A stretch of 64,000 nucleotides of DNA from Candidatus Latescibacterota bacterium (GTDB taxonomy: Bacteria > Krumholzibacteriota > Krumholzibacteriia > WVZY01). Positions 1 through 21,839 of this stretch are shown piece by piece. A program made the translations under genes and the position numbers. The stretch is from NCBI GenBank assembly GCA_963791045.1, contig CAWBQK010000013.1, positions 64,001 through 128,000 on the forward strand, read 5' to 3'. The notes under the pieces are model-generated. The model saw only the letters and a list, made by a program, of their open reading frames with translations. It had not been told where the DNA came from and searched no databases. How positions within the stretch are numbered: position 1 is the first letter of the stretch; every line of letters begins with the position of its first letter.

Positions 1-3000
1 TATTGGGCCTCGACGAGCGACTTGCCCCGCTTGATCCGGTTGAGCCCCGTCTTAACAGCGACATATTCGTCGTCGACCTGGCTTGAGAACGACCGGTACC
101 CCTCGATATCAAACATCGCGGCGAGATCCCAGGTGATCGGGAACGTTTGTTTCATTCCCATGATTGTTCCCATTCGCTTGTCGTTCGCCGTCCGGTTCAT
201 CGCGTACTTCGTATACAGCTTCGAATTCTGACCCGTCTGCGCCTCGATGCCGGTGAGCAGCTGGTGGGTCGCAGGCCGGTTGTGCGCCGACAAGTACTCG
301 TGCGTCGCCACGACCCGGTATCTCTGGAGGAAGCGGTACGACAAAGCCGAAGTCAAACGGTCGGGATACTCATCGACAATATCCGCGCCCTGGTTCCGCT
401 CCCAATGCGTCCGAAGTTCCGCGCTGCGGCCGGCGCGGACGCCGGCGTCAAGCATGGTGAGAAAACTGCTGCTCTCGATACTTTCCTTGTCCTGCGTCGC
501 CGCCCTGAGGCCCGCGCCAAACATCAGGGTCTTCCCTTCGTACTTTCCAAGCACGTCCACATTGCCAAGACGGTCGCCGCTATTGTCATTCCGGTGTTTG
601 AAACCGTGCGAGTCGATGGACAGGTCGTTGCTTATTCTCAAGTGCGAGTCAAACCCCGCCTTTTCGCTGTAAAGCTCGCGCGAAGCTCCGGCAAACGACG
701 GGTTGAGGAAATTGCCGTCGACCTTGCGGAGATAAACCGAGTGCTCACCCATGAGTTTTTTCGTGCCCGCCATCACGCGAAACGCGTTGCCTTCGCCGGC
801 GATGTCGTCCTCGCTTCGAGCAAACTCGCCCCCCAGATCGAGCCAGCCTATCGAGTATCCGCCATCGAAGCCGTAGAGCGAATAATCCGAAAGATGCCCG
901 TCCTTGGCGATCGCGGTCACGCCGAGCTTGAAACGGCCGCTCTGTGCCAGTGCGCCTCGGATCCCGTAGAGATAGTCTCCCTCTTCCGACGATTCCGCCT
1001 CGTAGATGGCGACGATCCTTACCGGGTTCAATTCGCGCGTGAATGCGGGAATCGGCTCTTTGAAAAGAATCGCGCCGTTGAAATAGTTGACGGTGAAGTC
1101 CCGATGTTCAGTGAGGGGCCTGATCTCTAGAATTCTCTCGGACTGGTAGCGGTCGCGCACCTGGAGCATGAGGTTTACAGAGTTTTCCACGACGGGCGAT
1201 TTCGACAGGAAGTAGAACCCGCTGGTGCCGTCACCCTGGATTTCATCCTGGACGGTAAAGAAATCCGTTTTGGTCACGAACGCTTCGACACCGGCGTTCC
1301 CAGAAACGATGGCGCCGTTGAGGCCGGTGGCTGATTTCTTGTAGGTGAGAAATTCTCCCTCGGTAAACGGCGACCGGAAGTCTCCGTATCGCAAGAAGGA
1401 CTGCCCCTTCTCGAGGGCGATGTAATTGCCGCCCTGCGCGGGCGCCTCGTAGTGAAGCTCGGACGCGTCGCCGTACGCCGTGTACTGACGCTCGGGGTTG
1501 AAAGTCTGAAGGAGCGGATCGTCGTAGCGCTTATCGGTGTCGATACGCGCGGTCAAATTGATTCCCGCGTACGACGTCCCCTGGATAAAGAAACGCGACT
1601 CGCCTTTGAATCGAACACCCTCGTAGTAATCTTCGAGACCCAACGGATCGCCGCTCCCCGATGAGCTGAAAGCGCCGAGACGCCCCTCGATGATTCCCGA
1701 CATAAACATCGACCGGTGTGCCGGAACAAAAGCGACAACACATGTCGCCCTGTAACCGTGCGACTCGACGACAATATTCCGGCGCCCCGTTGTCAGGCTC
1801 GGCCGGATGTGCACGAGGAACTGTCCGTTCTCGCTCGAAATCTGCAGGCCGCGCTGATCCGGATCTTCGTCGGAGTTAGTAACAAGCGAATCGCCTTCGA
1901 TCACGGTGGCTATGAGACCGTTTATCGTCGGGAGACCGAGTTCGTCGCGGAGTTCGACCAGAATCGTCTCGCGTGACTGCCCGTCCGCGGGAAGGATGAC
2001 ACGATCGGGCACTATCGCGATATCCACGGGTTTGCCCGCGAGCGCGACCGACACGCTGTCGACAATCGTTTCGGCTCCATTGACGGGGGTCGCTTCGAGT
2101 CGAGGCGTGTTCCAACCGTTCTTGATGCGCACGGCGTAATAAGTGATCTCTTCGAATCGTTCGTCGAGATGGATTTCTTTTTTACCGATCCGGTCCGCGG
2201 GAACGAGTTCGTCACCGCTGAACAATTCGTACTTGCTGCCCAGCGGGACCCGGGCCGTGACTTCGATCTGGTCGCGCTTAATCACAACCGATCGGTCGGG
2301 CGGGTCAAGGAGTCCGAGCGCCTTTACCTTGTCCTGGCCGCCGCGTTCGTCCGGCGGACTCTGTTCAGCATCGCCGGCAACTCCGTTCGCTCCGCCAACG
2401 GAATAACTCGCCGTGCTGTCCCCGGGGGCAAAACCGACACCGGCGGCGCGCAAACGCATGGCGAGATCTTTGTCCTCTTCCCACGAAACCAGCGTGTAAT
2501 ACTCCGTCTCTTTGCCGCCCCATCCGTGGGCGAATGGCTCGAGGACGACCGTGGAATCGAGCCACGATGACGAAGCGTCGGGAACGTCCGGCCACGCGGG
2601 CTCGGTAATCGACCGGTTTGCTTCACGCCACGGGACTTTGCGGCTCGTGCTTGTCTCCACGCTTCCCAAATCCGCCCGCGTACTCGAACCACCATACGAA
2701 CTCGATCATCCGCCCCCGTGTCCCCGACCGTCGAGTTGAATCCGACAACGGAACGAATCTCGCGCACCCGATGCGTGTCGGACGCCGCCGCGGTAAACGA
2801 CACCTTGCACTCGATTCCGCGCGATCGGGCAAATCCACCGACGACATATCGGCCATCGACTTCGGCGATCCTCCCCGCCGCACGTGACGCGCGTCTTTGC
2901 GTCATCGAACACATCCGGGATTTCGAGCGCGAGATCAATCTCGACCGGGATTATCGCGTCGGAGGAGATTCCCCAAATCACAAACACGTGGAACGAATCG

Positions 3001-5282
3001 GCGACGGTTGTCACGTTACTCATGTCGGCTTCGACACGGTCGATTTCCGCATGGTCCTCGACACCGGTTCCCGGCGGAACAAAACTGACCTCGACACGAC
3101 GGTTCTCTGCGCGGCCTTCGCGCGTCGTGTTCGTCGCCACCGGCGTAGTGTCGCCGTGGCCTCGTGCGACGATCCGCTCTTGGGGAATCCCTTTGGCGGA
3201 CAGATACCGCTTAACCGCGCCGGCACGCGCCTCGGAGAGTTCCTGGTTCGAAGCAAATTCCGCGTTGTGGATCGGAATGCTGTCGGTGTGACCTTCCAGA
3301 TAGACGATCCAACCAGGATTCTTCTCGAGAAATTCGACAATCGGGTTGAGATAGTGCAGCGTCCCGGTTTTCAGATACGATTTGCCGATTTCGAACAGCG
3401 AACTTGGAATTGACGGCATCCGGTAAAGGGCCTGTTGTTGTTTCCGGATGCTCACCATTTCCTGGCAGGATATCTGACGCGACACCCGCGGCCTTTCGCG
3501 GGCCCGTTCGGGCATCGGGAATGACACCACCGCGTGGCCGCTGGGGATCATGTGGACCAACCGTTCGGTGCCGAACACTGCGTTGGTTTTTGTGGATATG
3601 GCCTCGATGTCGACGATGTCGGGCGCGAGCGTGCTTTCATCGATCCGGATTACACGAAAACCGGAAAACACCCACGGGACCGAGAAGCGCCCCGTCGAGT
3701 CGGTCAACGCGTACTCCCCGCTCTCGAGAAATACGCCGACCCTCGGGAGTCCCCTCTCTCCGTGATCACGCTTGCCGTTTTTGTTTGCGTCGACAAACAC
3801 ATCGCCAAGGAGGAAACCCTCGTCACCAAACATATCGTTTGCAATCTTGAGCGCGTTGACCACGGGCCCCGCGTAAAGATTGCGCGCGAGCGCCGTGCCG
3901 ACAGCGTTTCCGGTGATCTTCGTCCAGCCGTTCTTGACGCGACTGTTTGCGACAAACTTGATCACCGCCTGCCGGCGTTCCCCGGGAGCGAGTGATCCAA
4001 CCTGCCATGCGAGGGTCTTTCCGTCGAGCTCAAAATCCGGACTCGAGAGAAACTCGAGTGTCGGCTGAACCGTTTCGTCCACAACGACATTGTCGGCGCG
4101 GACGCTGTCGCTCCGGTTGGCAACCGCGACAACCAGGGTGACGATGTCACCGAAGGCCGCCGTGTTTTCTTTGAAAGTTTGTTCGAGACTGAGAACCGCC
4201 GACGGGTTGAACGGTTCGGCAAGAACAATCCGGTCGATTGTTTCGTTCGTCCGCGTCGTGTCGAGGAGCGAACGCGCTCGCAGACGAATCGATAACGAGT
4301 CCTGCCCGACGTGATAGAACGACTCATCTTCGGTGGTGACGTGAACTTGAAGCGTCCGTCTTTCACCGCTTTCCAGCTGACCGAGAAGCACCGCGCCCGA
4401 ACTGGCAGGAACCGTTCGAAGCCCGTTGCCGGCGCTGTCCCGCACGGTTACCTGAACCCCGGGCGGCCAACCGGTCGAATCGGCGGGCTCGATCCGAATT
4501 ATGTCCGGATCGCGGCCATCGTTAAGAATTTCGTTTTCAAAAACAAGTGTCTGCGTCGACACTCCAACGCTGCGGCGCGTGACGTCATCGGGACTACCCT
4601 CTCCGCCCGGCAACGCCTTCGCGTTCTCGAGCGGTCCGACGTGAAGCGGTTGGACTGGATCCGCCTGTGTGAGAATGTGAACAACGCTCGATGCCCGGCG
4701 CTCGAGCGTGTCGACACCCGTGGCCGCCGAAATATCGACATAACTATCCCCACCACCCTGCCCCGAAGTGAGAACGTACATCGTTCCCAGGTCCGTCGAC
4801 TCTCCGGGCCCGAGGTTGAGGAAGGATCGGTCTTCCTCTCCGGGATCGAAAGCGGAATTCCCGTTCGAATCGTGATAGAAAACGACATCACTGATTCCAA
4901 TCGTCGACGCGGACAAGATCGCGTGATCGACCGAGATCGAATCGGCGACGTTCCCCAGGTTTCGCACCACGAAACCGCACTGAACGGTATCCGCCTCGAA
5001 ACCGAACAGCGAATACGCGGGACTCGCTACCGTGCCGGCCGGCGTAAGCGAAATCTGGAAGAAAGGACCCACTGGTGTGGTCGCCGGATTGGACCGAACG
5101 GCGTGTCGGAAGCCGTTCTGAGTGTACTCGGCGCTGGACTGGGAAATGATTTCATAACCAAGAGGCGGGACGGCGGCCTGCACGTTTTGCCAAACAAAAA
5201 ACACCCCTACGACGACCCAACACCATAACAGGCGCTTTAACAATGGGTTATAGGGATGAATTCTCACTTGATGATCTCTCAA
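1..5282 (-). CDS. Giant secreted outer-membrane protein: N-terminal Ig/DUF11 repeats, SdrD-B-like domain, OmpA-like peptidoglycan-binding domain, Ig domain and long beta-rich barrel-like C-terminus. 3' end lies beyond the window. Interrupted by an apparent compensating frameshift pair (~2870 and ~2710).
   Basis: 858-aa ORF 5282-2706 has a signal peptide (..QNVQA|AVPP), DUF11 (GDIVTLVVAVAN..LAWQVGSLAPGE), FVDANKNGKRDHGE and OmpA motifs (EGHTD, NQELSEARA, NRRVE). In the segments I translated, the same frame resumes after TGA 2706 and reaches base 1 (NPERQYTAYGDASELHYEAP, ERILEIRPLTEHRDFTVNYFNGAILFKEPIP). The ORF track lists no stop-bounded ORF in that frame. Segment ~2870-2710 reads protein-like in another frame. 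Start codon uncertain. Confidence 0.8.
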
Positions 5283-5376: not shown

Positions 5377-8079
5377 CTACTCGGCAATGATCCGAACTAT
5401 AAAACTCACACCGGTTGCTGACGCTCCACCGGGTTCAAGAACTCCGGCGAGAACAAAACGCACATGCGTAACGTTCGCGTCGAAGTTGACCGGTGCACCG
5501 CCACCACCGCTGACCGGCGTGTACGTCCACGACGTACCGCCGTCATTCGAATACTGCGGCGTTACGCCGGTAATCGAAGCCGGTGGTGTGCCAGGGTCAA
5601 CGGAACCGACACGGAACTGCGTGAACGCCGGAACCGCGTCTATGACCGCAAGGGTCTGAAGCGAATCCGTTCCGAGGTTCTGATAGTCCGTGGTGTATGT
5701 AAGCTCCGAGCCCGGTGTTTGCGGGCCCGCGGGAGCCACTGCCTTGGTGATCTGGAGATCACCGGCTGTTATCAACGTGATGTCGATCGCGTCGTCGCTC
5801 ACGAGCGTGACGTTGCCTGTAGCGGTCAACGTGCCCGTCTCAACCGTTCCAACGGTCGCCGTACCGGGAACCATGACCTGAGCGATAACCGTAACGCTGG
5901 CGCCGGGGTTGAGCGTTACATCGGCCAGAGGGTTGTTGAGCGTATCGTAGAACAGATACGTCCATCCCTGCGACGAGACGTACGACAGCGCGAACGTATC
6001 GGCCACGTTACCGGTATTGGTTACCGTGTGCGTGTAGCGGATCGTCCCGCCGGGTGTCGTGCTCCCGTTCTGATCGGGAGAGAAATCAACCGCCGCAAAG
6101 TTGTTTATCGTAACTGTGTTGGCGATAGTGTCCAGAATGGTTCCGTTGGCAACCGAGGTCGCTGTAAACGACACGGGGTTGATACCCGGAGCCGCACCCG
6201 CAGGAACATCCACACGGGCGACGATATTTACCTCGGCTCCACCCGCGATCGGTCCCACCGATACCAGTGTCGTGGTTTCGCCGGGATCGAGCACACCGTT
6301 GCCGTTGGGATCGTCGTAGAACGTGACGTTCCATCCCGCGGGCACCGCATAGGTGAGCGTGTAGGAATCGCTTCCCCCACCCGTATTAACAACATCGAGC
6401 GGGAAATCAACCGACGTCGCCGGGTCGGCGGGCAGATCCAACGGATTGTTGTCCGTGCCCGGACCGGCAAGGTAGTTACCGATGTCCACGCTGACCGGCG
6501 TCACGTTGAGGACGCGATCAGTCGTAAGGTTGAACTCGGTTGGATCGATCGTCGACTGGGCACGGATAACCGCGTCAAACGGTCCGCCGGCAGCCTGGCT
6601 GCCCGGGATTACCAGTCGAACGATAATGTCGACACTGTCGCCCGGCGCAACGGGGCCCACATCGGGGAGTCCGTCAAAACCGGTATCGGCGAGCGGAGTC
6701 ACGCCATCTGACTGGAGCAAAAGAACGCCCCAGGTGGCGGGAAGTGTCGACGCCGGATCGGTGAGAATATTGATCTGATCGGCGGCATTGCCGTCGTTTC
6801 TTACGGTATTGACGAAGTCCACGGTCGTGCCCGCATCGGCGTTGGCGAGAGTCTGGAGATCGTCGTTGTACAGGGGAGGCGTACCGGCACCGGCGTCACC
6901 GGCAGGACCGATTACGATGTCCGCGAGACCGCCGATGGTCACCAGCGCGTTATTCGAAACGATCGTTGTCGGATCCGGTGTCACGGCGGTGTTGTCGATA
7001 TAGGTCACGGCCGCGGTGTTACCCAGTGAACCGGCGCCCATGCCGATCGGAACGGTCGCCTGATACACAAAGTTGTAACCCTGACCCGGAATGATCGCGC
7101 CGTTGGTCACATAACCGACGGCAAGGTCGCCCGGCCCTGCTACGAGGCCCCAGTTCCATGTTTCGGGATCTCCAGCGGTCGACTCGCCGGCGGGAAGATA
7201 AAGAACCGTTCCACCCGCTGGCGTACCAAACGGCACACCGGAAATTGCGAGAGGATTTCCCGTCGAAGGATCGGTCGGAATAATATCCCAGAGCAACACA
7301 CCGGTAAGACCAACGGAACCAACGGTTACGCCGTTCGCGTTGTTGTTACCCGTGTTTGAACCGGAAAGCGTGTAGGTTACCTGGTTGCCTTCGAATACGA
7401 TCGCGGGCGCGGCGGCGAGATTGGCCGTCATTACCGCGTCGTTCACAACGTCGGTCCTGTGATAATTGCGTGTGTCGATCTGTGCCGCGTCTCCAACAGA
7501 GACACCGGTCACACCGACGTAAGCAAGTTCACCCGAAACGGCGGCCGCGGGCACTGTGTAGGCGACGATAACACTGATTGTCTGCCCGGCGGTGAGAATC
7601 CCCGTATTGCCCGAAATGCCCCCGGCGCTCAGAACGGGTTCACCAAGATCCACCATGCCGTTCGAGTTGAGATCGTGATAAATCGTGACATCGACGTTGT
7701 TGAGCAACATTGTTGAATTCGCAACGTCAACATTGGGAGACAACGTAAAGTCATCGTCGTCATTACCCGTGTTGGTCAGATCGTATCTATAATATACGGT
7801 CATGCCGGGCAGTGCATTCTGAGCCATCGCCGGAGTCAGGGGAGGCGTTTCACCCGAATCATCGGGGAGAATCGACACACCAAACACCGGAAGAACGATG
7901 GTGATGACTTCATTTGATGTCGCGGAATAATTGTTCCCACCCATGTCCTGGTAGGTCGCAGATGACCGGTTCCGGATCTGCGTACCGGCAGGCGTTGCCT
8001 GCGCAAAGACAGTTGTTGCCGTGACCGCGACGATCAACAGCAACATCACGGGAAGGGTGATGTAGACTCGTCTACTCAT
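5377..8079 (-). CDS. Secreted 900-aa DUF11/Ig-like repeat protein, putative fibre (pilin-like) subunit
   Basis: Signal peptide (..TTVFA|QATP), RBS AAGGA. Repeated 'V.I.P..PG.T..Y..NTGN..D.F.L' Ig modules, Ca-loop motifs DLNSNGMVD and DPNGNGVLD, C-terminal DUF11 (LQITK..GSELTY..IDAVP..YSNDGG..VTHVRF). Thr/Gly/Val-rich. Confidence 0.85.
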   Translation of the reverse strand: MSRRVYITLPVMLLLIVAVTATTVFAQATPAGTQIRNRSSATYQDMGGNNYSATSNEVITIVLPVFGVSILPDDSGETPPLTPAMAQNALPGMTVYYRYDLTNTGNDDDDFTLSPNVDVANSTMLLNNVDVTIYHDLNSNGMVDLGEPVLSAGGISGNTGILTAGQTISVIVAYTVPAAAVSGELAYVGVTGVSVGDAAQIDTRNYHRTDVVNDAVMTANLAAAPAIVFEGNQVTYTLSGSNTGNNNANGVTVGSVGLTGVLLWDIIPTDPSTGNPLAISGVPFGTPAGGTVLYLPAGESTAGDPETWNWGLVAGPGDLAVGYVTNGAIIPGQGYNFVYQATVPIGMGAGSLGNTAAVTYIDNTAVTPDPTTIVSNNALVTIGGLADIVIGPAGDAGAGTPPLYNDDLQTLANADAGTTVDFVNTVRNDGNAADQINILTDPASTLPATWGVLLLQSDGVTPLADTGFDGLPDVGPVAPGDSVDIIVRLVIPGSQAAGGPFDAVIRAQSTIDPTEFNLTTDRVLNVTPVSVDIGNYLAGPGTDNNPLDLPADPATSVDFPLDVVNTGGGSDSYTLTYAVPAGWNVTFYDDPNGNGVLDPGETTTLVSVGPIAGGAEVNIVARVDVPAGAAPGINPVSFTATSVANGTILDTIANTVTINNFAAVDFSPDQNGSTTPGGTIRYTHTVTNTGNVADTFALSYVSSQGWTYLFYDTLNNPLADVTLNPGASVTVIAQVMVPGTATVGTVETGTLTATGNVTLVSDDAIDITLITAGDLQITKAVAPAGPQTPGSELTYTTDYQNLGTDSLQTLAVIDAVPAFTQFRVGSVDPGTPPASITGVTPQYSNDGGTSWTYTPVSGGGGAPVNFDANVTHVRFVLAGVLEPGGASATGVSFIVRIIAE

Positions 8080-8089
8080 AGTCCTTACC

Positions 8090-8581
8090 TCACTTGATTA
8101 CCGTTCTGTACGTTACAGTGATGCCTTGTTTTGGCTGGACGGGCTCCGAGAGAGCCCAACGGAGATGCGTCACCATGTCCGGTGTTGCCTCCACCAATTC
8201 TTCCTCGCCGTTCTCGTTCGTCTGTTTGACGAGAATCGGCCAGGCCTGGTACGTTTTTCCTCCATCGATGCTGTACTCCACGTCGCCCGTTTTGAGCTCG
8301 GTGGCTGACGGATGGACGAATTCGGTACCCAACGGGATTCCGTCCGTTATGAAAATATTCTGTATGGGCTGGTCGCCGGTGTTGGTGTAGGTCAACCGAT
8401 ATTCAATTGTATCGTTTGGCCTCGCGTTATCAGCGGGAAGAAAATCTTCCACTCCCTGGTCGGTAACCACCACCCGAAAAGCCTCGAGACTGCCCGCCAG
8501 ATCCCCCCCGGCGGCAAATGCCATCGATGCGGTCAATCCGAGAACAAGCAGAAACACCGCAAAGAAGCGCTTCTCTATCAT
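8090..8581 (-). CDS. Small secreted single-DUF11-domain protein (163 aa)
   Basis: GGAGG RBS before ATG 8581. Signal peptide MIEKRFFAVFLLVLGLTASMAFA. Motifs PNDTIEYRLTYTNTG..ITDGIP..EYSIDGGKTY..VTHLRW, homologous to the C-terminal domain of the 900-aa neighbour. Confidence 0.85.
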   Translation of the reverse strand: MIEKRFFAVFLLVLGLTASMAFAAGGDLAGSLEAFRVVVTDQGVEDFLPADNARPNDTIEYRLTYTNTGDQPIQNIFITDGIPLGTEFVHPSATELKTGDVEYSIDGGKTYQAWPILVKQTNENGEEELVEATPDMVTHLRWALSEPVQPKQGITVTYRTVIK

Positions 8582-8695
8582 AAAGAGCCTCCTTAAAAAC
8601 TCCGGTCCGTGGATAATTTGAAACGTCGCGGCGAGGATCGATGACGTACCGAGGGGTAAGATTTCTTCCCCGCCTGTCCGGTCAGGGAGACAGAT

Positions 8696-8711
8696 AGCAA
8701 GGAGTGAACCA
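8696..8711 (-). promoter_or_regulatory. Candidate sigma54 (-24/-12) promoter of the DUF11 operon
   Basis: Minus strand TGGTTCACTCCTTGCT = TGG-N10-GC with TTGCT, ~115 bp upstream of ATG 8581. A GAFTGA activator is encoded next door. Confidence 0.6.
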
Positions 8712-8721
8712 CCTATGAGAA

Positions 8722-8741
8722 GTGTCAAGGAACGATGACAC
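8722..8741. promoter_or_regulatory. Palindromic operator candidate GTGTCA-N8-TGACAC
   Basis: Perfect 6-bp inverted repeat just upstream of the sigma54 element. Confidence 0.4.
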
Positions 8742-8840
8742 CTCATGAGAAATCCCGCGTCGCTGTGGGGCGACCGACGGCGGTTTCTCCCCAATCACGG
8801 AACGACGGGGTAATTCAAGACGCAACACGAACGCGCAACC

Positions 8841-8857
8841 CCTTGCAAGATGCAAGG
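8841..8857. promoter_or_regulatory. Palindrome CCTTGCA-N3-TGCAAGG, candidate enhancer (UAS)
   Basis: Perfect 7-bp inverted repeat 130-146 bp upstream of the -24 element, a typical bEBP enhancer distance. Confidence 0.4.
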
Positions 8858-8928
8858 TTTCTGGCGAAGACACCCGGAACAGGCCGAAAAGTGTTGAATA
8901 TTCTCCACCCAATGGCAATTATTTGGTC

Positions 8929-9993
8929 ATGGACTTACCATCGCGCGCATCAAGGTACAGGCTGGCAATAGTCCTGGTGGTGTCACTGGCGACCGTGGCC
9001 TTCCATTACGGCCTCATCGTCAAGCCATCGGCGGGAGATGACGGATTTTTTCATGCGATACACGGGCGTCTCTGTTATATCCCGATCATCCTCGGCGCGA
9101 TCTGGTTTGGGGTTCGCGGCGGCCTCGGAATCGCTCTTTTTATAACGGCGCTCACAATCCCATACGCCCGGTACGGCCCGCACGCCCAACACGGCGCGGC
9201 GATCGGCGAATACACCGAGATGATTTTCTATGTCGCGATCGGCCTCACGGCGGGGTTTCTTATCGAACTTCAAAGACGAGAACGTAAAAGGCGGGAGGAG
9301 ATGGCCGACGAACTCGCCCGCCAGGAACACCTCTCATCGCTCGGGCAAATGGCCGCCGGTCTCGCCCATGAAATCAAAAACCCGCTCGGTTCGATAAAAG
9401 GATCCGCCGAAGTCATTGGCGACGATTATCCCGAAGGCACGCGCAAACATGAAATCGTCGAAGTGCTTTCGAAGGAAACCGACAGGTTGAATCGCGTCGT
9501 GGAAGATTTCCTCAAATTCGCGCGGCCGCGGCCGATAAACAAAGAGATGCGCGGGTTGAACTTTCTGCTCGAGGAAGTCGTGTTGCAGATTGGAGTGGAT
9601 GCAAACGCCCGCAACATCACAATCAAAAAAGACATCGACGTCGCACTTCCTGTGGCGCGGGTCGATCCCGAGAAAATGCGCCAGGTGTTTTTGAATATGC
9701 TGCTCAACGCCGTGAACGCGATGCCCGACGGGGGCACTATCCGTGTCGAAACCAAAGTGGACATCCGTGACGGCAAGAACGTCTTTCGCATCACATTCAT
9801 GGACGAGGGCGTCGGAATACCGCCCGAGGATGTCAAAAAAATATTCGATCCGTTTTTCACGCGGACGGACGGCGGGACGGGTCTTGGACTCTCGATTTCA
9901 CACTCCATCGTCCAGGAACACGGCGGCCATATCGAGGTCGAACCCAACCACCCGCGGGGGACGTCGATTTCCGTTATCCTGCCCTTTAAATAA
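8929..9993 (+). CDS. Membrane-bound sensor histidine kinase (NtrB/ZraS/PilS-like)
   Basis: About 4 N-terminal TM helices, H-box LAHEIKNPL, N-box QVFLNMLLNA, G boxes DEGVGI, FDPFF, GTGLGL. Confidence 0.92.
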   Translation: MDLPSRASRYRLAIVLVVSLATVAFHYGLIVKPSAGDDGFFHAIHGRLCYIPIILGAIWFGVRGGLGIALFITALTIPYARYGPHAQHGAAIGEYTEMIFYVAIGLTAGFLIELQRRERKRREEMADELARQEHLSSLGQMAAGLAHEIKNPLGSIKGSAEVIGDDYPEGTRKHEIVEVLSKETDRLNRVVEDFLKFARPRPINKEMRGLNFLLEEVVLQIGVDANARNITIKKDIDVALPVARVDPEKMRQVFLNMLLNAVNAMPDGGTIRVETKVDIRDGKNVFRITFMDEGVGIPPEDVKKIFDPFFTRTDGGTGLGLSISHSIVQEHGGHIEVEPNHPRGTSISVILPFK

Positions 9994-10004
9994 GAAAGCT
10001 GAGA

Positions 10005-11354
10005 ATGCCCAGGCCAACCATACTCATAGTCGATGATGACGCGAGCATCCGCAAAGTCCTCGGATTTATCCTCGAGGAGGCGGGCTATGCGATTCGCACG
10101 GAATCGTCGGGCGCGGCGGCAATCGCGGCCATTGAGAGCAAACGGCCCGACCTCGTAATGACCGATATCAAGATGCCCGGGATGGACGGGATTACGCTTC
10201 TCGGCGAAATTAAGAAAATCGACGACGGCATCCCCGTCATCGTGCTCACCGCGTTTGGCTCGGTGGAGACGGCCGTCGACGCCATGAAACTCGGGGCAAT
10301 CGATTATCTCACGAAACCAATCAGCCGGGATGAGCTTACACTCACCGTCGAGAAAACGCTCCGGATACGACAACTCGAAAAAGAGAACGTGTCGTTAAAA
10401 GAATCTCTCGCCGACAAGTTCGATGTGGCGAACATCATCGGACACTCCCCCGCCATGCAAAGCGTATTTGAAATCGTCCGGAAGGTGGCGGCCACGGACG
10501 CGTCGGTCCTGATAACCGGCGAAAGTGGAACCGGGAAGGAACTCATTGCAAGGGCAATTCACTTCAACTCCACCCGCAAGGATGCGCGGCTTGTCACGGT
10601 AAACTGCGCGGCGATTCCCGAGGACCTTCTTGAAAGTGAGCTTTTTGGGCATGTAAAGGGCGCGTTCACCGGAGCCATCAGGAAGAAGGACGGCAGGTTT
10701 CACCTGGCGCACAACGGGACCATTTTTCTCGACGAGATCGGATCGCTTCCCCGACCCCTCCAGGCAAAACTCCTTCGAGCGCTTCAGGAACAAGAAATCC
10801 AAAGGGTCGGCGAAGAAGAACCCACAACGGTCGACGTTCGTGTGATTTCAGCCACCAACCGTCCCCTGCCCGAGCTGATTCGCGACGGGGAATTTCGCGA
10901 CGATCTTTTTTACCGATTGAATGTCGTACCGGTCACCGTGCCACCGCTGCGTCAGCGCCGATCGGACATACCGCTTCTCGTCGATCACTTTAAGGGGGAC
11001 GGAGGAAAGGTAACGTTCACCGCCTCGGCGCTCGCGGCGCTCGAGGAGTACGAATGGCCGGGAAACGTGCGCGAGCTGGAAAATTTTTGTGAACGCATCG
11101 TGTTGATGTCAGGCTCGGGCACGATCGACGCCGCACCAGTACGGGAGCAGATCGAATTGATGAAAGCGGAACAAGCCCATATCGGATCACCGCAACAGGC
11201 AACGCTTCCCGAGGTGGAACGCCGCGCCGTGGTCGAAGCGCTTATCGACTGCAACTGGAACCAGTCGAAAGCCGCCCGCCGCCTCGGCATCCCACGGCAC
11301 GTTCTTCTCTATCGCATGAAGAAGTTCAACATCCACCGCGACCATTCCGACTAA
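10005..11354 (+). CDS. Sigma54-dependent NtrC-family response regulator
   Basis: Receiver (ILIVDDD, DLVMTD), AAA+ GESGTGKE, GAFTGA, WPGNVRELEN, C-terminal Fis-type HTH (NQSKAARRLGI). Confidence 0.96.
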   Translation: MPRPTILIVDDDASIRKVLGFILEEAGYAIRTESSGAAAIAAIESKRPDLVMTDIKMPGMDGITLLGEIKKIDDGIPVIVLTAFGSVETAVDAMKLGAIDYLTKPISRDELTLTVEKTLRIRQLEKENVSLKESLADKFDVANIIGHSPAMQSVFEIVRKVAATDASVLITGESGTGKELIARAIHFNSTRKDARLVTVNCAAIPEDLLESELFGHVKGAFTGAIRKKDGRFHLAHNGTIFLDEIGSLPRPLQAKLLRALQEQEIQRVGEEEPTTVDVRVISATNRPLPELIRDGEFRDDLFYRLNVVPVTVPPLRQRRSDIPLLVDHFKGDGGKVTFTASALAALEEYEWPGNVRELENFCERIVLMSGSGTIDAAPVREQIELMKAEQAHIGSPQQATLPEVERRAVVEALIDCNWNQSKAARRLGIPRHVLLYRMKKFNIHRDHSD

Positions 11355-19547: not shown

Positions 19548-21839
19548 TCAAGGGTTTGTCTTCTTTGAACCCAACTCCTGGCGGACTCTCTGCAGGTTGC
19601 TCCGCGCCCGCCGGTTGTCCGGGTCGAGCTCGATTACTTCGAGGAATTCCCGCTCCGCATCCTCGAACCTGCCGACCGTCGCGTAGACCGAACCGAGTGT
19701 CAGATGGCCGTTCGAGTATTTCGGCTCAACGCCGATGGCCATTTCACCATATTTTATCGATTCGTCGAAACGGCCCAGCTCCATGTTCATGATCGCGAGG
19801 TTATTCATTGCATAAACATCATCCTTCTTCAGCGCCAGCGCTTTCTTGAAGGATTGTTCGGCAAGCGAAAATTGTTTCAGCCGCCCGTAACACACACCAA
19901 TGTTATTCAACGCGCTCGGGAAGTTCGGATTCAACGCAAGGGCCTTTTTGAACTCCTCGATCGCCTCCGCATACTTGCCCTGCTCCTGGTATCTCTGCCC
20001 AAGATTGTTGTATGCATCCGGATTCTCGGGAGTGATGTACCCCAACGCTTCAAGCTTTTTGAGCGTTTCCTCATCCGCCGCGCCCGCGCCTTCCGGGACG
20101 TCACCCGTCGCGCGATTACGATTGAGTGTCGCGACGATCGTGGTATTCACCTCGTCGGCCAGCGCCGGTTCGAAAGCGTCGATAAGCACTTTTCCCGGCA
20201 TGTCGGCGGCCTGCGGCAGACCCTCGAGTGCGAGAAAAGTGGGAAGAACATCGAGAACCGTTGCCCCATCGATCTTGTACCCCTTGCGAATCCCCGGGCC
20301 GTACATAGCGATGATACCGTTGAGCTGGTGCCAAAAAGCCGCGTGTCCGCCTCCAATCTGGCCACCGAGTTTTGGCCTGCCTTGTCCGCTTTTGAAACCA
20401 TGGTCTGACGCGATCACCAAAACCGTCTCATCGTCACACATCTCGATAAACTCGCCGATGATCCCGTCCTGATAAATATAAGTCTGAAGCATCGCGTCTT
20501 TGTACTTTGCGAAGTCCGCCTCCGTGACCCATGACAGACGCGGCGGCGCGAAGTTCATAAAGAGATGGCCGACGGCGTCGCACCATTCGAAGTACACCCC
20601 GAGAAAATCCGGCTGGTCGGCGGCAAGCAGATGTTTCGCGATGTTGTAATAAGACCTCGCCGACGCGTAGAGCATGATCATGTTGTTAACCGGGTTTTCA
20701 GGGTCGAACGCGACAACCTTGTTCTTGTCGAAGGTTTCGCGGTCGACATGGAGAAACCGTCTGAAATCCTCGTAATCTACGTCGGCGCTTTTGACGATCA
20801 AATGGGACATCTCGTCGACCCTGTCGGCGGGCGACACGCTTCCCGGGGCGAGCTCGTCGCTTTCCCCCGCGTCCGCATAGGCGAGGTATCCGACCCGGTC
20901 CGTGACCATCACGCCGTTGATCTCTTCGGCGGGATACGATGCCAGCCAACCGACGACATCCGCGCGGCGGCCGTGATCTCCAAAAATATTCCAGAGGGCA
21001 TCGACCTTTCGGTACATGCGCGTGATCGGCATCCTCTTCCCCGTCTCTGGGTCGGTGACGGTGAAGTTGAGAATTCCGTGGTCCTCCGGAAGCTTCCCGG
21101 TTGCTATCGACGTCCAGATAAGAGGCGAGAGCAACGGTTCGATCGACCGTAGCCGGCCGGACGCGCCGCCTTCCAAAATCTTTTTGAAGTTGGGGAGAAA
21201 TCCGGCCTCGATAAGCGGATCGATGATTTCCCAATCTCCGCCATCGACTCCCACAAAAATAATTTTTCTGAGCGGCTTTTCGGCAACGTTGAAAGTAACC
21301 CCTTCACCCGTCCCCGCAGTGACATCCCATGTGTCGACACGGAACCCATCCACGCTGATCCCAACTTTGCCGAGATCGGTTTTGATTTCGCGGAGCACGC
21401 CATTGACAAAATCATCCGGCGTTGCGATCGCCGGACCTGGGTATTCGGCAAGATTGATTTCAACGGATTCCCGGATCGACTCGGACAAACCCCGCTGCAA
21501 ATCGGCTCCGTAACTTTTGTACAAGAACGCTCCCGAATCATCTTTGACGTTGAGTCGAAGTTCGAGCGCGACATTCGCTCGGCCGCCATCACGGGTCAAA
21601 CCGGAATACGTCGACTCCGGAGGAAAACGCATTTCCACGGCACCCACTGGGTAAACGGCAAACGCCTGCGAAAACGGAAGGACAATATTAAACCCGGGGC
21701 CATACTGCTTGGCCGCACCCGCCCCATCAATCCGGACCGCCTGATGCCCTTCGGGAACCCGTTTGACGACAAGCGCGGAGAGGATGGTAATCACGGCGAC
21801 CGCAACCAGCGAGAAAACAATGAATAAGCGTTTTTGCAT
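19548..21839 (-). CDS. Membrane-anchored SPFH-like + alkaline-phosphatase-superfamily (NPP/phosphodiesterase) + TPR protein
   Basis: N-terminal TM then VPEGHQAV..GPGFNIVLPF..TRDG..V (band-7-like). GVDGGDW..SPLIWTSIATG..HGI, D..GH, SDHGF. KLEALGYI, then about 4 TPRs. Confidence 0.8.
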   Translation of the reverse strand: MQKRLFIVFSLVAVAVITILSALVVKRVPEGHQAVRIDGAGAAKQYGPGFNIVLPFSQAFAVYPVGAVEMRFPPESTYSGLTRDGGRANVALELRLNVKDDSGAFLYKSYGADLQRGLSESIRESVEINLAEYPGPAIATPDDFVNGVLREIKTDLGKVGISVDGFRVDTWDVTAGTGEGVTFNVAEKPLRKIIFVGVDGGDWEIIDPLIEAGFLPNFKKILEGGASGRLRSIEPLLSPLIWTSIATGKLPEDHGILNFTVTDPETGKRMPITRMYRKVDALWNIFGDHGRRADVVGWLASYPAEEINGVMVTDRVGYLAYADAGESDELAPGSVSPADRVDEMSHLIVKSADVDYEDFRRFLHVDRETFDKNKVVAFDPENPVNNMIMLYASARSYYNIAKHLLAADQPDFLGVYFEWCDAVGHLFMNFAPPRLSWVTEADFAKYKDAMLQTYIYQDGIIGEFIEMCDDETVLVIASDHGFKSGQGRPKLGGQIGGGHAAFWHQLNGIIAMYGPGIRKGYKIDGATVLDVLPTFLALEGLPQAADMPGKVLIDAFEPALADEVNTTIVATLNRNRATGDVPEGAGAADEETLKKLEALGYITPENPDAYNNLGQRYQEQGKYAEAIEEFKKALALNPNFPSALNNIGVCYGRLKQFSLAEQSFKKALALKKDDVYAMNNLAIMNMELGRFDESIKYGEMAIGVEPKYSNGHLTLGSVYATVGRFEDAEREFLEVIELDPDNRRARSNLQRVRQELGSKKTNP

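Follow-up and report, generated by a model that had tools for sequence, protein, structure and literature searches.

SpyTag/SpyCatcher is an engineered split of the CnaB2 domain, in which a single-strand tag becomes attached through a Lys-Asp bond with Glu as the catalyst. Here we describe P0001, a natural protein in which one isopeptide domain of the DUF11 family appears to be divided between the two ends of the chain. It is encoded by a minus-strand open reading frame (ORF) of 900 amino acids (aa) at 5377..8079 of a 64,000-nucleotide stretch of contig CAWBQK010000013.1, from an uncultured Krumholzibacteriota/Latescibacterota bacterium; this whole stretch is called the window, and coordinates are window positions unless another locus is named. 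DUF11 was renamed CLIPPER in 2025, and its crystal structure (PDB 9IFR) is CnaA-like with an intramolecular bond involving Lys715, Asp748 and Asn806 (PMC12617251). In CnaA-like domains the isopeptide links the first and penultimate strands, and the Lys-to-Asp spacing in 9IFR is 33 residues (PMC12617251); the words "split" and "truncated" do not occur in that paper. BsaA of Clostridium perfringens, a member of the TasA family, undergoes donor-strand exchange with an intermolecular isopeptide formed by the triad N35/E56/K74, and BsaA mutants are reported to lose their oligomers (10.1101/2024.11.04.621531). In the thread of Sulfolobus acidocaldarius, built from Saci_0406, the N-terminal alpha-amine of Asp24 is bonded to Asn57 of subunit n+2, and the neighbouring Saci_0405, which has a donor strand and no acceptor site, is a proposed cap (PMC9715654). 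Donor-strand complementation also joins the subunits of chaperone-usher pili (PMC9715654). Donor-strand exchange locked by an autocatalytic isopeptide (BsaA, archaeal threads) and intramolecular CLIPPER bonds are already known.

The C-terminal domain (C-domain) of P0001 belongs to the CLIPPER family by Pfam and TIGR01451, and its weak fold match to 9IFR has a target-normalised template-modelling score (TMt) of 0.58. Common to both are a Lys on strand 1, an Asp about 33-35 residues further on, an Asn on the penultimate strand and the setting in surface proteins of Gram-negative bacteria; the CLIPPER triad, however, lies in one contiguous domain, whereas the Asn-bearing hairpin of P0001 is detached and sits about 740 residues off at the other end of the protein. 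With BsaA the proposed P0001 arrangement shares an N-terminal Asn donor, an acceptor with Lys and an acid, head-to-tail order and the lack of a sortase, and we found in P0001 both the conserved N-terminal Asn donor and the acceptor Lys and acid; that the BsaA operon partner BsaB forms only dimers may be listed as a further likeness. BsaA differs in its TasA-like fold without DUF11, its single donor strand, its Glu, its single-domain subunit, its Gram-positive host and the mutational evidence behind it, where the P0001 bond is predicted. The Sulfolobus thread likewise combines head-to-tail donor-strand complementation with an inter-subunit isopeptide, apparently without a sortase, and Saci_0405 parallels an orphan donor encoded in the P0001 operon; the thread is archaeal, its subunit is a pilin-like single domain and its bond is not a Lys-Asn bond in a catalytic triad. 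As in SpyTag/SpyCatcher, an isopeptide domain comes in two pieces, a peptide and the rest of the fold, which would reconstitute and ligate spontaneously, but SpyTag is man-made with a CnaB fold, whereas the P0001 case is natural, CnaA-like, Lys-Asn with Asp, and has a hairpin as its tag. The sortase-free covalent polymer put forward in a preliminary description of the window is, given BsaA and the archaeal threads, not without precedent. What would be new here, judging from sequences and models, is that a CnaA-like isopeptide domain is split in nature, that its donor has two strands and its subunit six domains, that dedicated end-pieces accompany it and that the host is a diderm; a literature search, whose coverage mostly leaves out subscription journals, returned no published description of such a domain. 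We give about even chances that P0001 copies are joined in trans through this split CLIPPER domain into a covalent chain.

Architecture of P0001 and its split CLIPPER domain

From its N-terminus, P0001 consists of a signal peptide, the donor hairpin, five Ig-like domains and, last, the acceptor domain; its gene closes with the stop codon at 5377-5379, and all features of this section lie on the minus strand. The signal peptide (aa 1-26; 8002..8079), read by eye from the sequence, ends in an A-x-A-like VFA motif and contains a model helix at residues 4-24. It is followed by the donor β-hairpin (aa 28-62, 35 residues; 7894..7998), which corresponds to the penultimate and last CLIPPER strands according to the profile matches, conservation and predicted interface described below, and which carries Asn37 (codon AAC, 7969..7971), the proposed isopeptide Asn. 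The five Ig-like domains (aa 66-769; 5773..7884) were delimited from Pfam matches and an AlphaFold2 model. The acceptor domain (aa 773-900; 5380..5763) is a DUF11/CLIPPER domain without the final hairpin and with an Asp-box-like insertion. Specifically, its first strand contains Lys779 (codon AAG, 5743..5745), and Asp814 (codon GAC, 5638..5640), 35 residues further on, is the proposed catalytic acid. The ORF, residues and coordinates of the preliminary description, which had named Lys779, Asp814, Asn37 and the hairpin at aa 28-62, are all correct on direct reading.

The acceptor domain matches PF01345 (DUF11) over aa 774-870 at 25.4 bits, borderline against the cut-off of 24.6, and the NCBIfam model TIGR01451 over aa 786-828 at 35.9 bits (cut-off 24). 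Its last strand is the one that, in the intact internal domain of P0001, comes before the final hairpin. Lys, Asp and Asn are consequently not found in one contiguous domain: the C-domain stops before the Asn strand, and the Asn motif stands at aa 37. The partial coverage of the Pfam profile (1-84 of 114) was considered as evidence of truncation and rejected, because the complete internal DUF11 of the neighbouring gene 3 likewise matches only profile positions 2-86. The C-domain has an Asn of its own, Asn869, which is not conserved (97/119 orthologues; N in 25 of 79 wider relatives). P0001 has a single Lys/Asp/Asn set, split across its two ends. Domain 2 (aa 216-383; 6931-7434) is a complete internal DUF11-like domain and contains no Lys anywhere in aa 210-232, in agreement with the preliminary description, which had seen no Lys at that position; lacking this first-strand Lys, it would be a CLIPPER domain unable to form the bond. 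Its Asp (D265) is invariant, and its Asn (N354) is kept at 90% or more. Domain 5 contains the Pfam family DUF7507 (aa 669-738).

Modelled alone, the acceptor domain is a confident seven-strand sandwich, with a predicted local distance difference test score (pLDDT) of 88.2 and a predicted template-modelling score (pTM) of 0.82. In a fold search with this hairpin-less model, 9IFR ranked 10th, with a query-normalised TM score (TMq) of 0.53 and a root-mean-square deviation of 3.6 Å over 127 columns; its target-normalised score was the highest among the PDB matches listed, and one integrin chain was higher by query-normalised TM. PDB sequence searches with the C-domain, the whole protein, a C-domain profile and the gene-3 DUF11 returned nothing relevant, and their only matches were of the Asp-box to sialidases at E>0.1. 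An Asp-box/BNR-like motif, S-x-D-x-G-x-x-W, lies within the acceptor domain at aa 844-851 (5527-5550) and also in the small protein encoded upstream; Ser844, Gly848 and Trp851 are invariant (119/119), and the motif is the source of the weak sialidase matches. The AlphaFold2 monomer of full-length P0001, made from an alignment of 118 orthologues, has a mean pLDDT of 88.5 and a pTM of 0.45, so that it vouches for no global shape, and a fold search with it retrieved just generic multi-Ig proteins at TMq <0.2. On reading of the sequence, the C-terminus ends right after the last β-strand with no LPXTG and no hydrophobic tail; the ORF list was consulted up to window position 20000, and none of the ORFs in that part was scanned for sortase families. 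The FimA/Mfa families are absent from the Pfam matches of P0001, its signal peptide has no lipobox Cys, and its donor is N-terminal, unlike that of type V pili. The TasA/camelysin-like family is absent from the same matches as well, the domains being Ig-like of the DUF11 and DUF7507 types.

Homology and conservation of the donor hairpin

A hidden Markov model (HMM) of the hairpin (aa 28-66), based on 118 orthologues, was used to search 149 representative DUF11 proteins related to the C-domain, with reversed sequences as the control. It gave 25 matches at an independent E-value (i-E) of <=1 (nine at <=0.1; best 7.7e-5) versus none in the reversed control (best 1.8). Fourteen of these matches fall in the tandem-repeat protein P0138 and four in P0177, both giant proteins, where they are in register with the end of each complete CLIPPER repeat. 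Asn occupies the Asn37 column in 19/25 matches, and in 18/25 the LxxxK-type start of the next repeat follows within 40 residues downstream. Because the matches stand in register with repeat ends, carry Asn in 19 of 25 cases and have no counterpart among reversed sequences, the P0001 hairpin is, as judged from profile comparison, a homologue of the last two strands of a CLIPPER repeat, as Asn37 is of the bond-forming Asn. Together with the point at which the C-domain ends, this result upholds the earlier proposal of a DUF11 domain split across the termini. Isolated hairpins gave no Pfam DUF11 match. Among the proteins of the window, matches of the hairpin and C-domain HMMs were limited to P0001 and the small protein.

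The homologues of P0001 number 345 at E<=1e-3. Identity is 60-76% for the best 120 (88% for one fragment); nearly all of these are 884-904 aa long, mostly 898-900, and the named ones come from Latescibacterota/Krumholzibacteriota metagenome-assembled genomes. We examined conservation in a 119-row alignment of sequences of 850-950 residues. The hairpin is the most conserved part of P0001, with 16/39 invariant columns versus 31/128 in the C-domain and 109/706 between them. Lys779 and Asp814 are each invariant (119/119 orthologues; 44/44 C-domains from species-representative genomes). Asn37 is present in 118/119 orthologues, the remaining row being a gap, and in 53/53 loci. These data bear out the conservation of the Lys/Asp/Asn positions that the preliminary description had predicted. 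Asn56 on the second hairpin strand, which that description had missed, is also invariant among the orthologues.

Predicted docking of the hairpin on the acceptor domain

Complexes of aa 27-215 (hairpin and domain 1) with aa 765-900 were predicted from alignments made in this analysis, in three runs with three controls. The interaction prediction score from aligned errors (ipSAE) was 0.91 in 3/3 runs, and the best of the three controls scored 0.00; in the benchmark, the mark is reached by 58/80 solved complexes and by 2/110 mismatched pairs. At least 89% of contacts are common to the runs, and the pLDDT of the partner is at least 91. The donor-chain interface consists of residues 27-65 and 106, that is, of the hairpin, with domain 1 barely involved. 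In the predicted complex, the second strand of the hairpin (53-63) runs beside both the Lys779 strand (775-781) and the last strand (897-900), and its first strand (35-46) is placed next to the Asp814 strand (805-815). This predicted layout is that expected of the last and penultimate strands of the domain. Lys779 contacts Ser55, Asn56 and Val58 among the 25 lowest-error contacts listed; the contact with the invariant Asn56 was another point absent from the preliminary description. The docking score shows compatibility, not binding, because the halves of a split domain tend to pass through their likeness to solved complete domains, and this pass may come partly from likeness to complete Ig domains.

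Donors and acceptors encoded in the operon

In relatives, four genes stand in a fixed order and encode two donors and three acceptors, with P0001 alone having both. Gene 1, upstream of P0001, encodes a small secreted protein of 163 aa (8090..8581, minus strand) with a single acceptor-type domain and no hairpin. It aligns with the acceptor domain in BLASTP (27% identity, E 8e-8), has the same end point and is present in 53/53 loci; in the protein of the window the Lys is replaced by Arg and the Asp is retained. Mechanically, its ORF opens at a TTG at 8794 (8090-8794, minus strand, 234 aa), and the orthologues and the signal peptide favour the ATG at 8581. Its stop codon lies just 10 bases before the P0001 start.

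Gene 3 lies downstream of P0001. Its first part (858 aa; 2706..5282, minus strand) encodes a signal peptide and a donor-type hairpin, then an Ig-like region that includes one complete DUF11, and also SdrD_B and OmpA-like domains. The hairpin (aa 38-71; 5070..5171, minus strand) has Ser47 at the position equivalent to Asn37. It aligns with the P0001 N-terminus in BLASTP (37% identity, E 7e-6), and jackhmmer also joins the two. Such a hairpin occurs in 42/53 loci, which are 42/42 of those that extend so far, the other 11 contigs stopping earlier. The second part of gene 3, P0002 (3..2669, minus strand), continues past the window edge and is fused with the first part in most relatives; gene 3 forms one frame of >1800 aa, stop to stop, in 26 loci (the list of such long frames has 31 rows, of which five, in L013, L014, L027 and L031, are other kinds of frame). 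The P0002 region may be an outer-membrane β-barrel. Gene 3 ends in a terminal Phe in about five of those 26 loci (L001, L002, L004, L005, L044), and P0002 has Atlas feature matches of 0.95-0.96 to unnamed clusters and to one auto-named as a TonB-dependent receptor fragment, which is a lead only; no Pfam or NCBIfam family was found in P0002. In the window gene 3 is disrupted (2706-2857, minus strand): the orthologue-like translation is frame-shifted between about 2857 and 2732, and the 858-aa ORF is cut off from P0002 by an in-frame TGA (2706-2708), beyond which the frame resumes. Either a pair of assembly indels or a damaged gene accounts for this break.

Gene 4 (~1350 aa), downstream of gene 3 and beyond the window start, was found in 18 loci, among them L002:18412-22515, L022:11633-15724 and L044:17183-21247. 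Its protein lacks an N-terminal hairpin, contains NPCBM-associated and SdrD_B domains and carries an acceptor-type DUF11 at the C-terminus, in which both Lys and Asp are kept (18/18 each). Neither a PapD-like chaperone nor an usher family was found when the small protein, gene 3 and P0002 were scanned with Pfam and NCBIfam. Two regulatory genes, one for a histidine kinase and the other for a sigma-54-dependent (NtrC-type) response regulator, lie divergently upstream of the operon (8923-11354, plus strand), as in 15/53 loci; no sigma-54 promoter (TGGCAC-N5-TTGC) was found near 8585-8922, the window holding four matches versus 2.9 expected.

The partners differ in how well they keep the bond-forming residues. 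The gene-3 hairpin has Asn at the Asn position in 13/43 genomes and Ser or Gly in 30/43; Lys and Asp are found together in the small protein in 12/43. Small-protein Lys and Asp occur with gene-3 Asn in 11 genomes and without it in one, and gene-3 Asn occurs with Arg in place of Lys in two. On a tree of P0001 orthologues this amounts to four independent contrasts, of which two or three run in the same direction and none in the opposite one (sign test p 0.25-0.5), so that the covariation of the two proteins is a hint and is not significant. Gene 4 keeps its Lys and Asp even in lineages with a Ser or Gly gene-3 hairpin, where the P0001 hairpin is the sole Asn-bearing hairpin of the locus. In the same genomes the P0001 triad never decays, nor do the gene-4 Lys and Asp. 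The invariance of Lys779, Asp814 and Asn37 would thus mean that those three residues meet each other, or that Asn37 meets gene 4.

The hairpin-less domain in other proteins

Among cluster representatives, relatives of the C-domain number 1436 at E<=1e-3 and 486 at E<=1e-10; the counts below refer to the best 149 of the 1436 (P0122-P0270). A near-whole-domain match is present in 95/149, and 79 of those 95 lie at the extreme C-terminus of proteins 127 to 1742 residues long. In 74/79 the protein ends exactly one residue after the final RI motif. The Lys is kept in 52/79 and the Asp in 69/79 of these C-terminal domains. The N-termini of the same proteins are unrelated and have no hairpin detectable by the HMM. 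In many hairpin-less relatives a Cys pair replaces the Gly and Asn around a conserved GAP..YD motif. An Atlas search with the C-terminal module returned only DUF11-labelled clusters, with scores <=0.92. The hairpin-less ending is either stable without a hairpin or a general "catcher" that is fed by another protein.

Discussion

Starting from the split architecture, hairpin homology, conservation, synteny and predicted docking, we infer bond formation, joining in trans over closure in cis, the order of subunits and their cellular location. P0001 would be a secreted rod of six Ig-like domains, one of which, a CnaA-like CLIPPER (DUF11) isopeptide domain, is split. Its C-terminal domain would give the first seven strands, including Lys779 on strand 1 and Asp814, and the two strands still needed, a hairpin with Asn37 on the penultimate one, would come from its mature N-terminus. 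Once inserted, the hairpin would complete the acceptor fold and bring Lys, Asp and Asn together in a buried site, where an autocatalytic Lys-Asn isopeptide would form with loss of NH3, as expected from the single-chain behaviour of the CLIPPER family. Because the hairpin is directly continued by domain 1 and domain 5 is followed by the acceptor, joining in trans would produce what looks like an ordinary domain junction of a tandem array, and its repetition would build a head-to-tail covalent chain without an enzyme. Acceptor-only proteins (the 163-aa protein; gene 4 in relatives) could sit only at the hairpin end of this chain, and the donor-only gene 3, with its OmpA-like peptidoglycan-binding domain and putative barrel, would fill the last free acceptor and anchor the chain.

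The polarity of such a chain would follow the logic of tip, shaft and terminator in chaperone-usher pili, in which acceptor-only subunits form the tip, a special last subunit stands at the base and the operon supplies an outer-membrane protein. The likeness extends to an incomplete Ig fold completed by the N-terminal extension of a neighbour, to end subunits and to an operon-encoded outer-membrane protein, putative in the P0001 case. P0001 would differ in donating two strands rather than one and in having a covalent lock; its subunit is made of six domains, and no chaperone or usher family was detected in the scans above.

The best argument for trans, drawn from the gene content of the locus, is the presence of an orphan acceptor and an orphan donor in the operon: conserved parts of this kind cannot complement themselves, and they favour joining between chains. 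The inter-domain linkers of P0001 are short, which is a further point for trans. We regard a polymer joined in trans as a plausible reading of the split domain. Of the interpretation given in the preliminary description, the split, the conserved triad, the CnaA-like strand topology and the predicted docking stand; its purely homopolymeric picture is too simple, because the operon holds the small acceptor protein and the OmpA donor protein, neither of which it had mentioned.

Several observations weigh against a covalent chain. The hairpin has a pLDDT of 78-84 in the AlphaFold2 monomer, and the sole low-confidence linker, 771-774, stands just before the acceptor, which fits a cis-closed model. 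The near-fixed length of P0001 (898-900 aa) is not required by a beads-on-a-string fibre and is odd for a repetitive surface protein. The Lys779-Asn37 contact is absent from the 25 lowest-error contacts listed, residue 37 appearing in the interface list only. The acceptor domain may be stable without the hairpin, because its solo model is confident and 79/149 relatives end in it with no detectable hairpin. As a fold match, 9IFR is weak (E 0.031), and none of the 500 matches counted reaches E<=0.001. No tandem fusion of two P0001 copies was found, the 11 longer matches being all generic at ~30% identity, which is weak evidence.

Part of this evidence would suit closure in cis, in which the hairpin enters the C-domain of its own chain to give a covalent six-domain ring, a circularly permuted tandem array and stabilised monomer, and the small protein pairs separately with gene 3. 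A chain has its own partner at high effective concentration, the confident hairpin and the single hinge with pLDDT below 50 (771-774) would allow it, a ring would be in keeping with a length and a domain number that hardly vary, and the tracking of small-protein Lys and Asp with gene-3 Asn suggests that those two pair mutually rather than with P0001. A ring of six domains would, however, need sharp bends, as the linkers are short and, except 771-774, confident; the low pTM gives no warrant for the shape of the monomer, the small-protein/gene-3 association is not significant, and gene 4 keeps its Lys and Asp in all 18 loci with the P0001 hairpin as the sole Asn donor in many lineages. We consider closure in cis unlikely. 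The complementary orphan parts in fixed operon order, and the likeness of the gene-3 hairpin to that of P0001, would fit a hetero-complex with one copy each of anchor, rod and cap, in which the P0001 acceptor takes the gene-3 hairpin and the P0001 hairpin enters the small protein or gene 4. Such a strict one-to-one complex fails to explain why Lys779, Asp814 and Asn37 never vary, because the invariant Lys779 and Asp814 would face a residue that is Asn in so few gene-3 hairpins, and Lys and Asp are likewise rarely both present in the small protein; we rate this account as improbable.

There may also be no complementation at all, the C-domain being a self-sufficient seven-strand domain (perhaps a C-terminal sorting or attachment module), the hairpin just a remnant that caps domain 1, and structural reasons accounting for the conserved Lys and Asp. 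The C-domain does model well alone, and the hairpin-less end recurs in representatives of many architectures, without an N-terminal hairpin found by HMM. Yet the hairpin is the most conserved segment of P0001 and is homologous to exactly the missing piece, its predicted contacts are not on domain 1, and the lone Lys/Asp/Asn set is divided between the ends of the protein, so that we give this explanation very little weight. A covalent chain joined in trans, with end-pieces from the operon, remains our preferred reading.

More tentatively, and with a probability that we place well below even, the hairpin-less CLIPPER domain may be a natural "catcher" through which many unrelated secreted proteins are ligated, enzyme-free, to hairpin-bearing anchors or fibres. 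It would then provide sortase-independent attachment in diderms, with the Krumholzibacteriota operon as its self-polymerising form (gene 4 or the small protein as the tip, P0001 as the shaft, and the OmpA/barrel protein as the anchor). If the bond in trans is true, P0001 would be the first natural split CnaA-like isopeptide domain that joins proteins, and diderms would build covalent surface or envelope polymers without known sortases, chaperones or ushers. The common C-terminal DUF11-type ending, now annotated merely as a repeat, would gain a function. Such operons, with two donors and up to three acceptors each, would also be a source of natural peptide/domain ligation pairs orthogonal to the SpyTag family.

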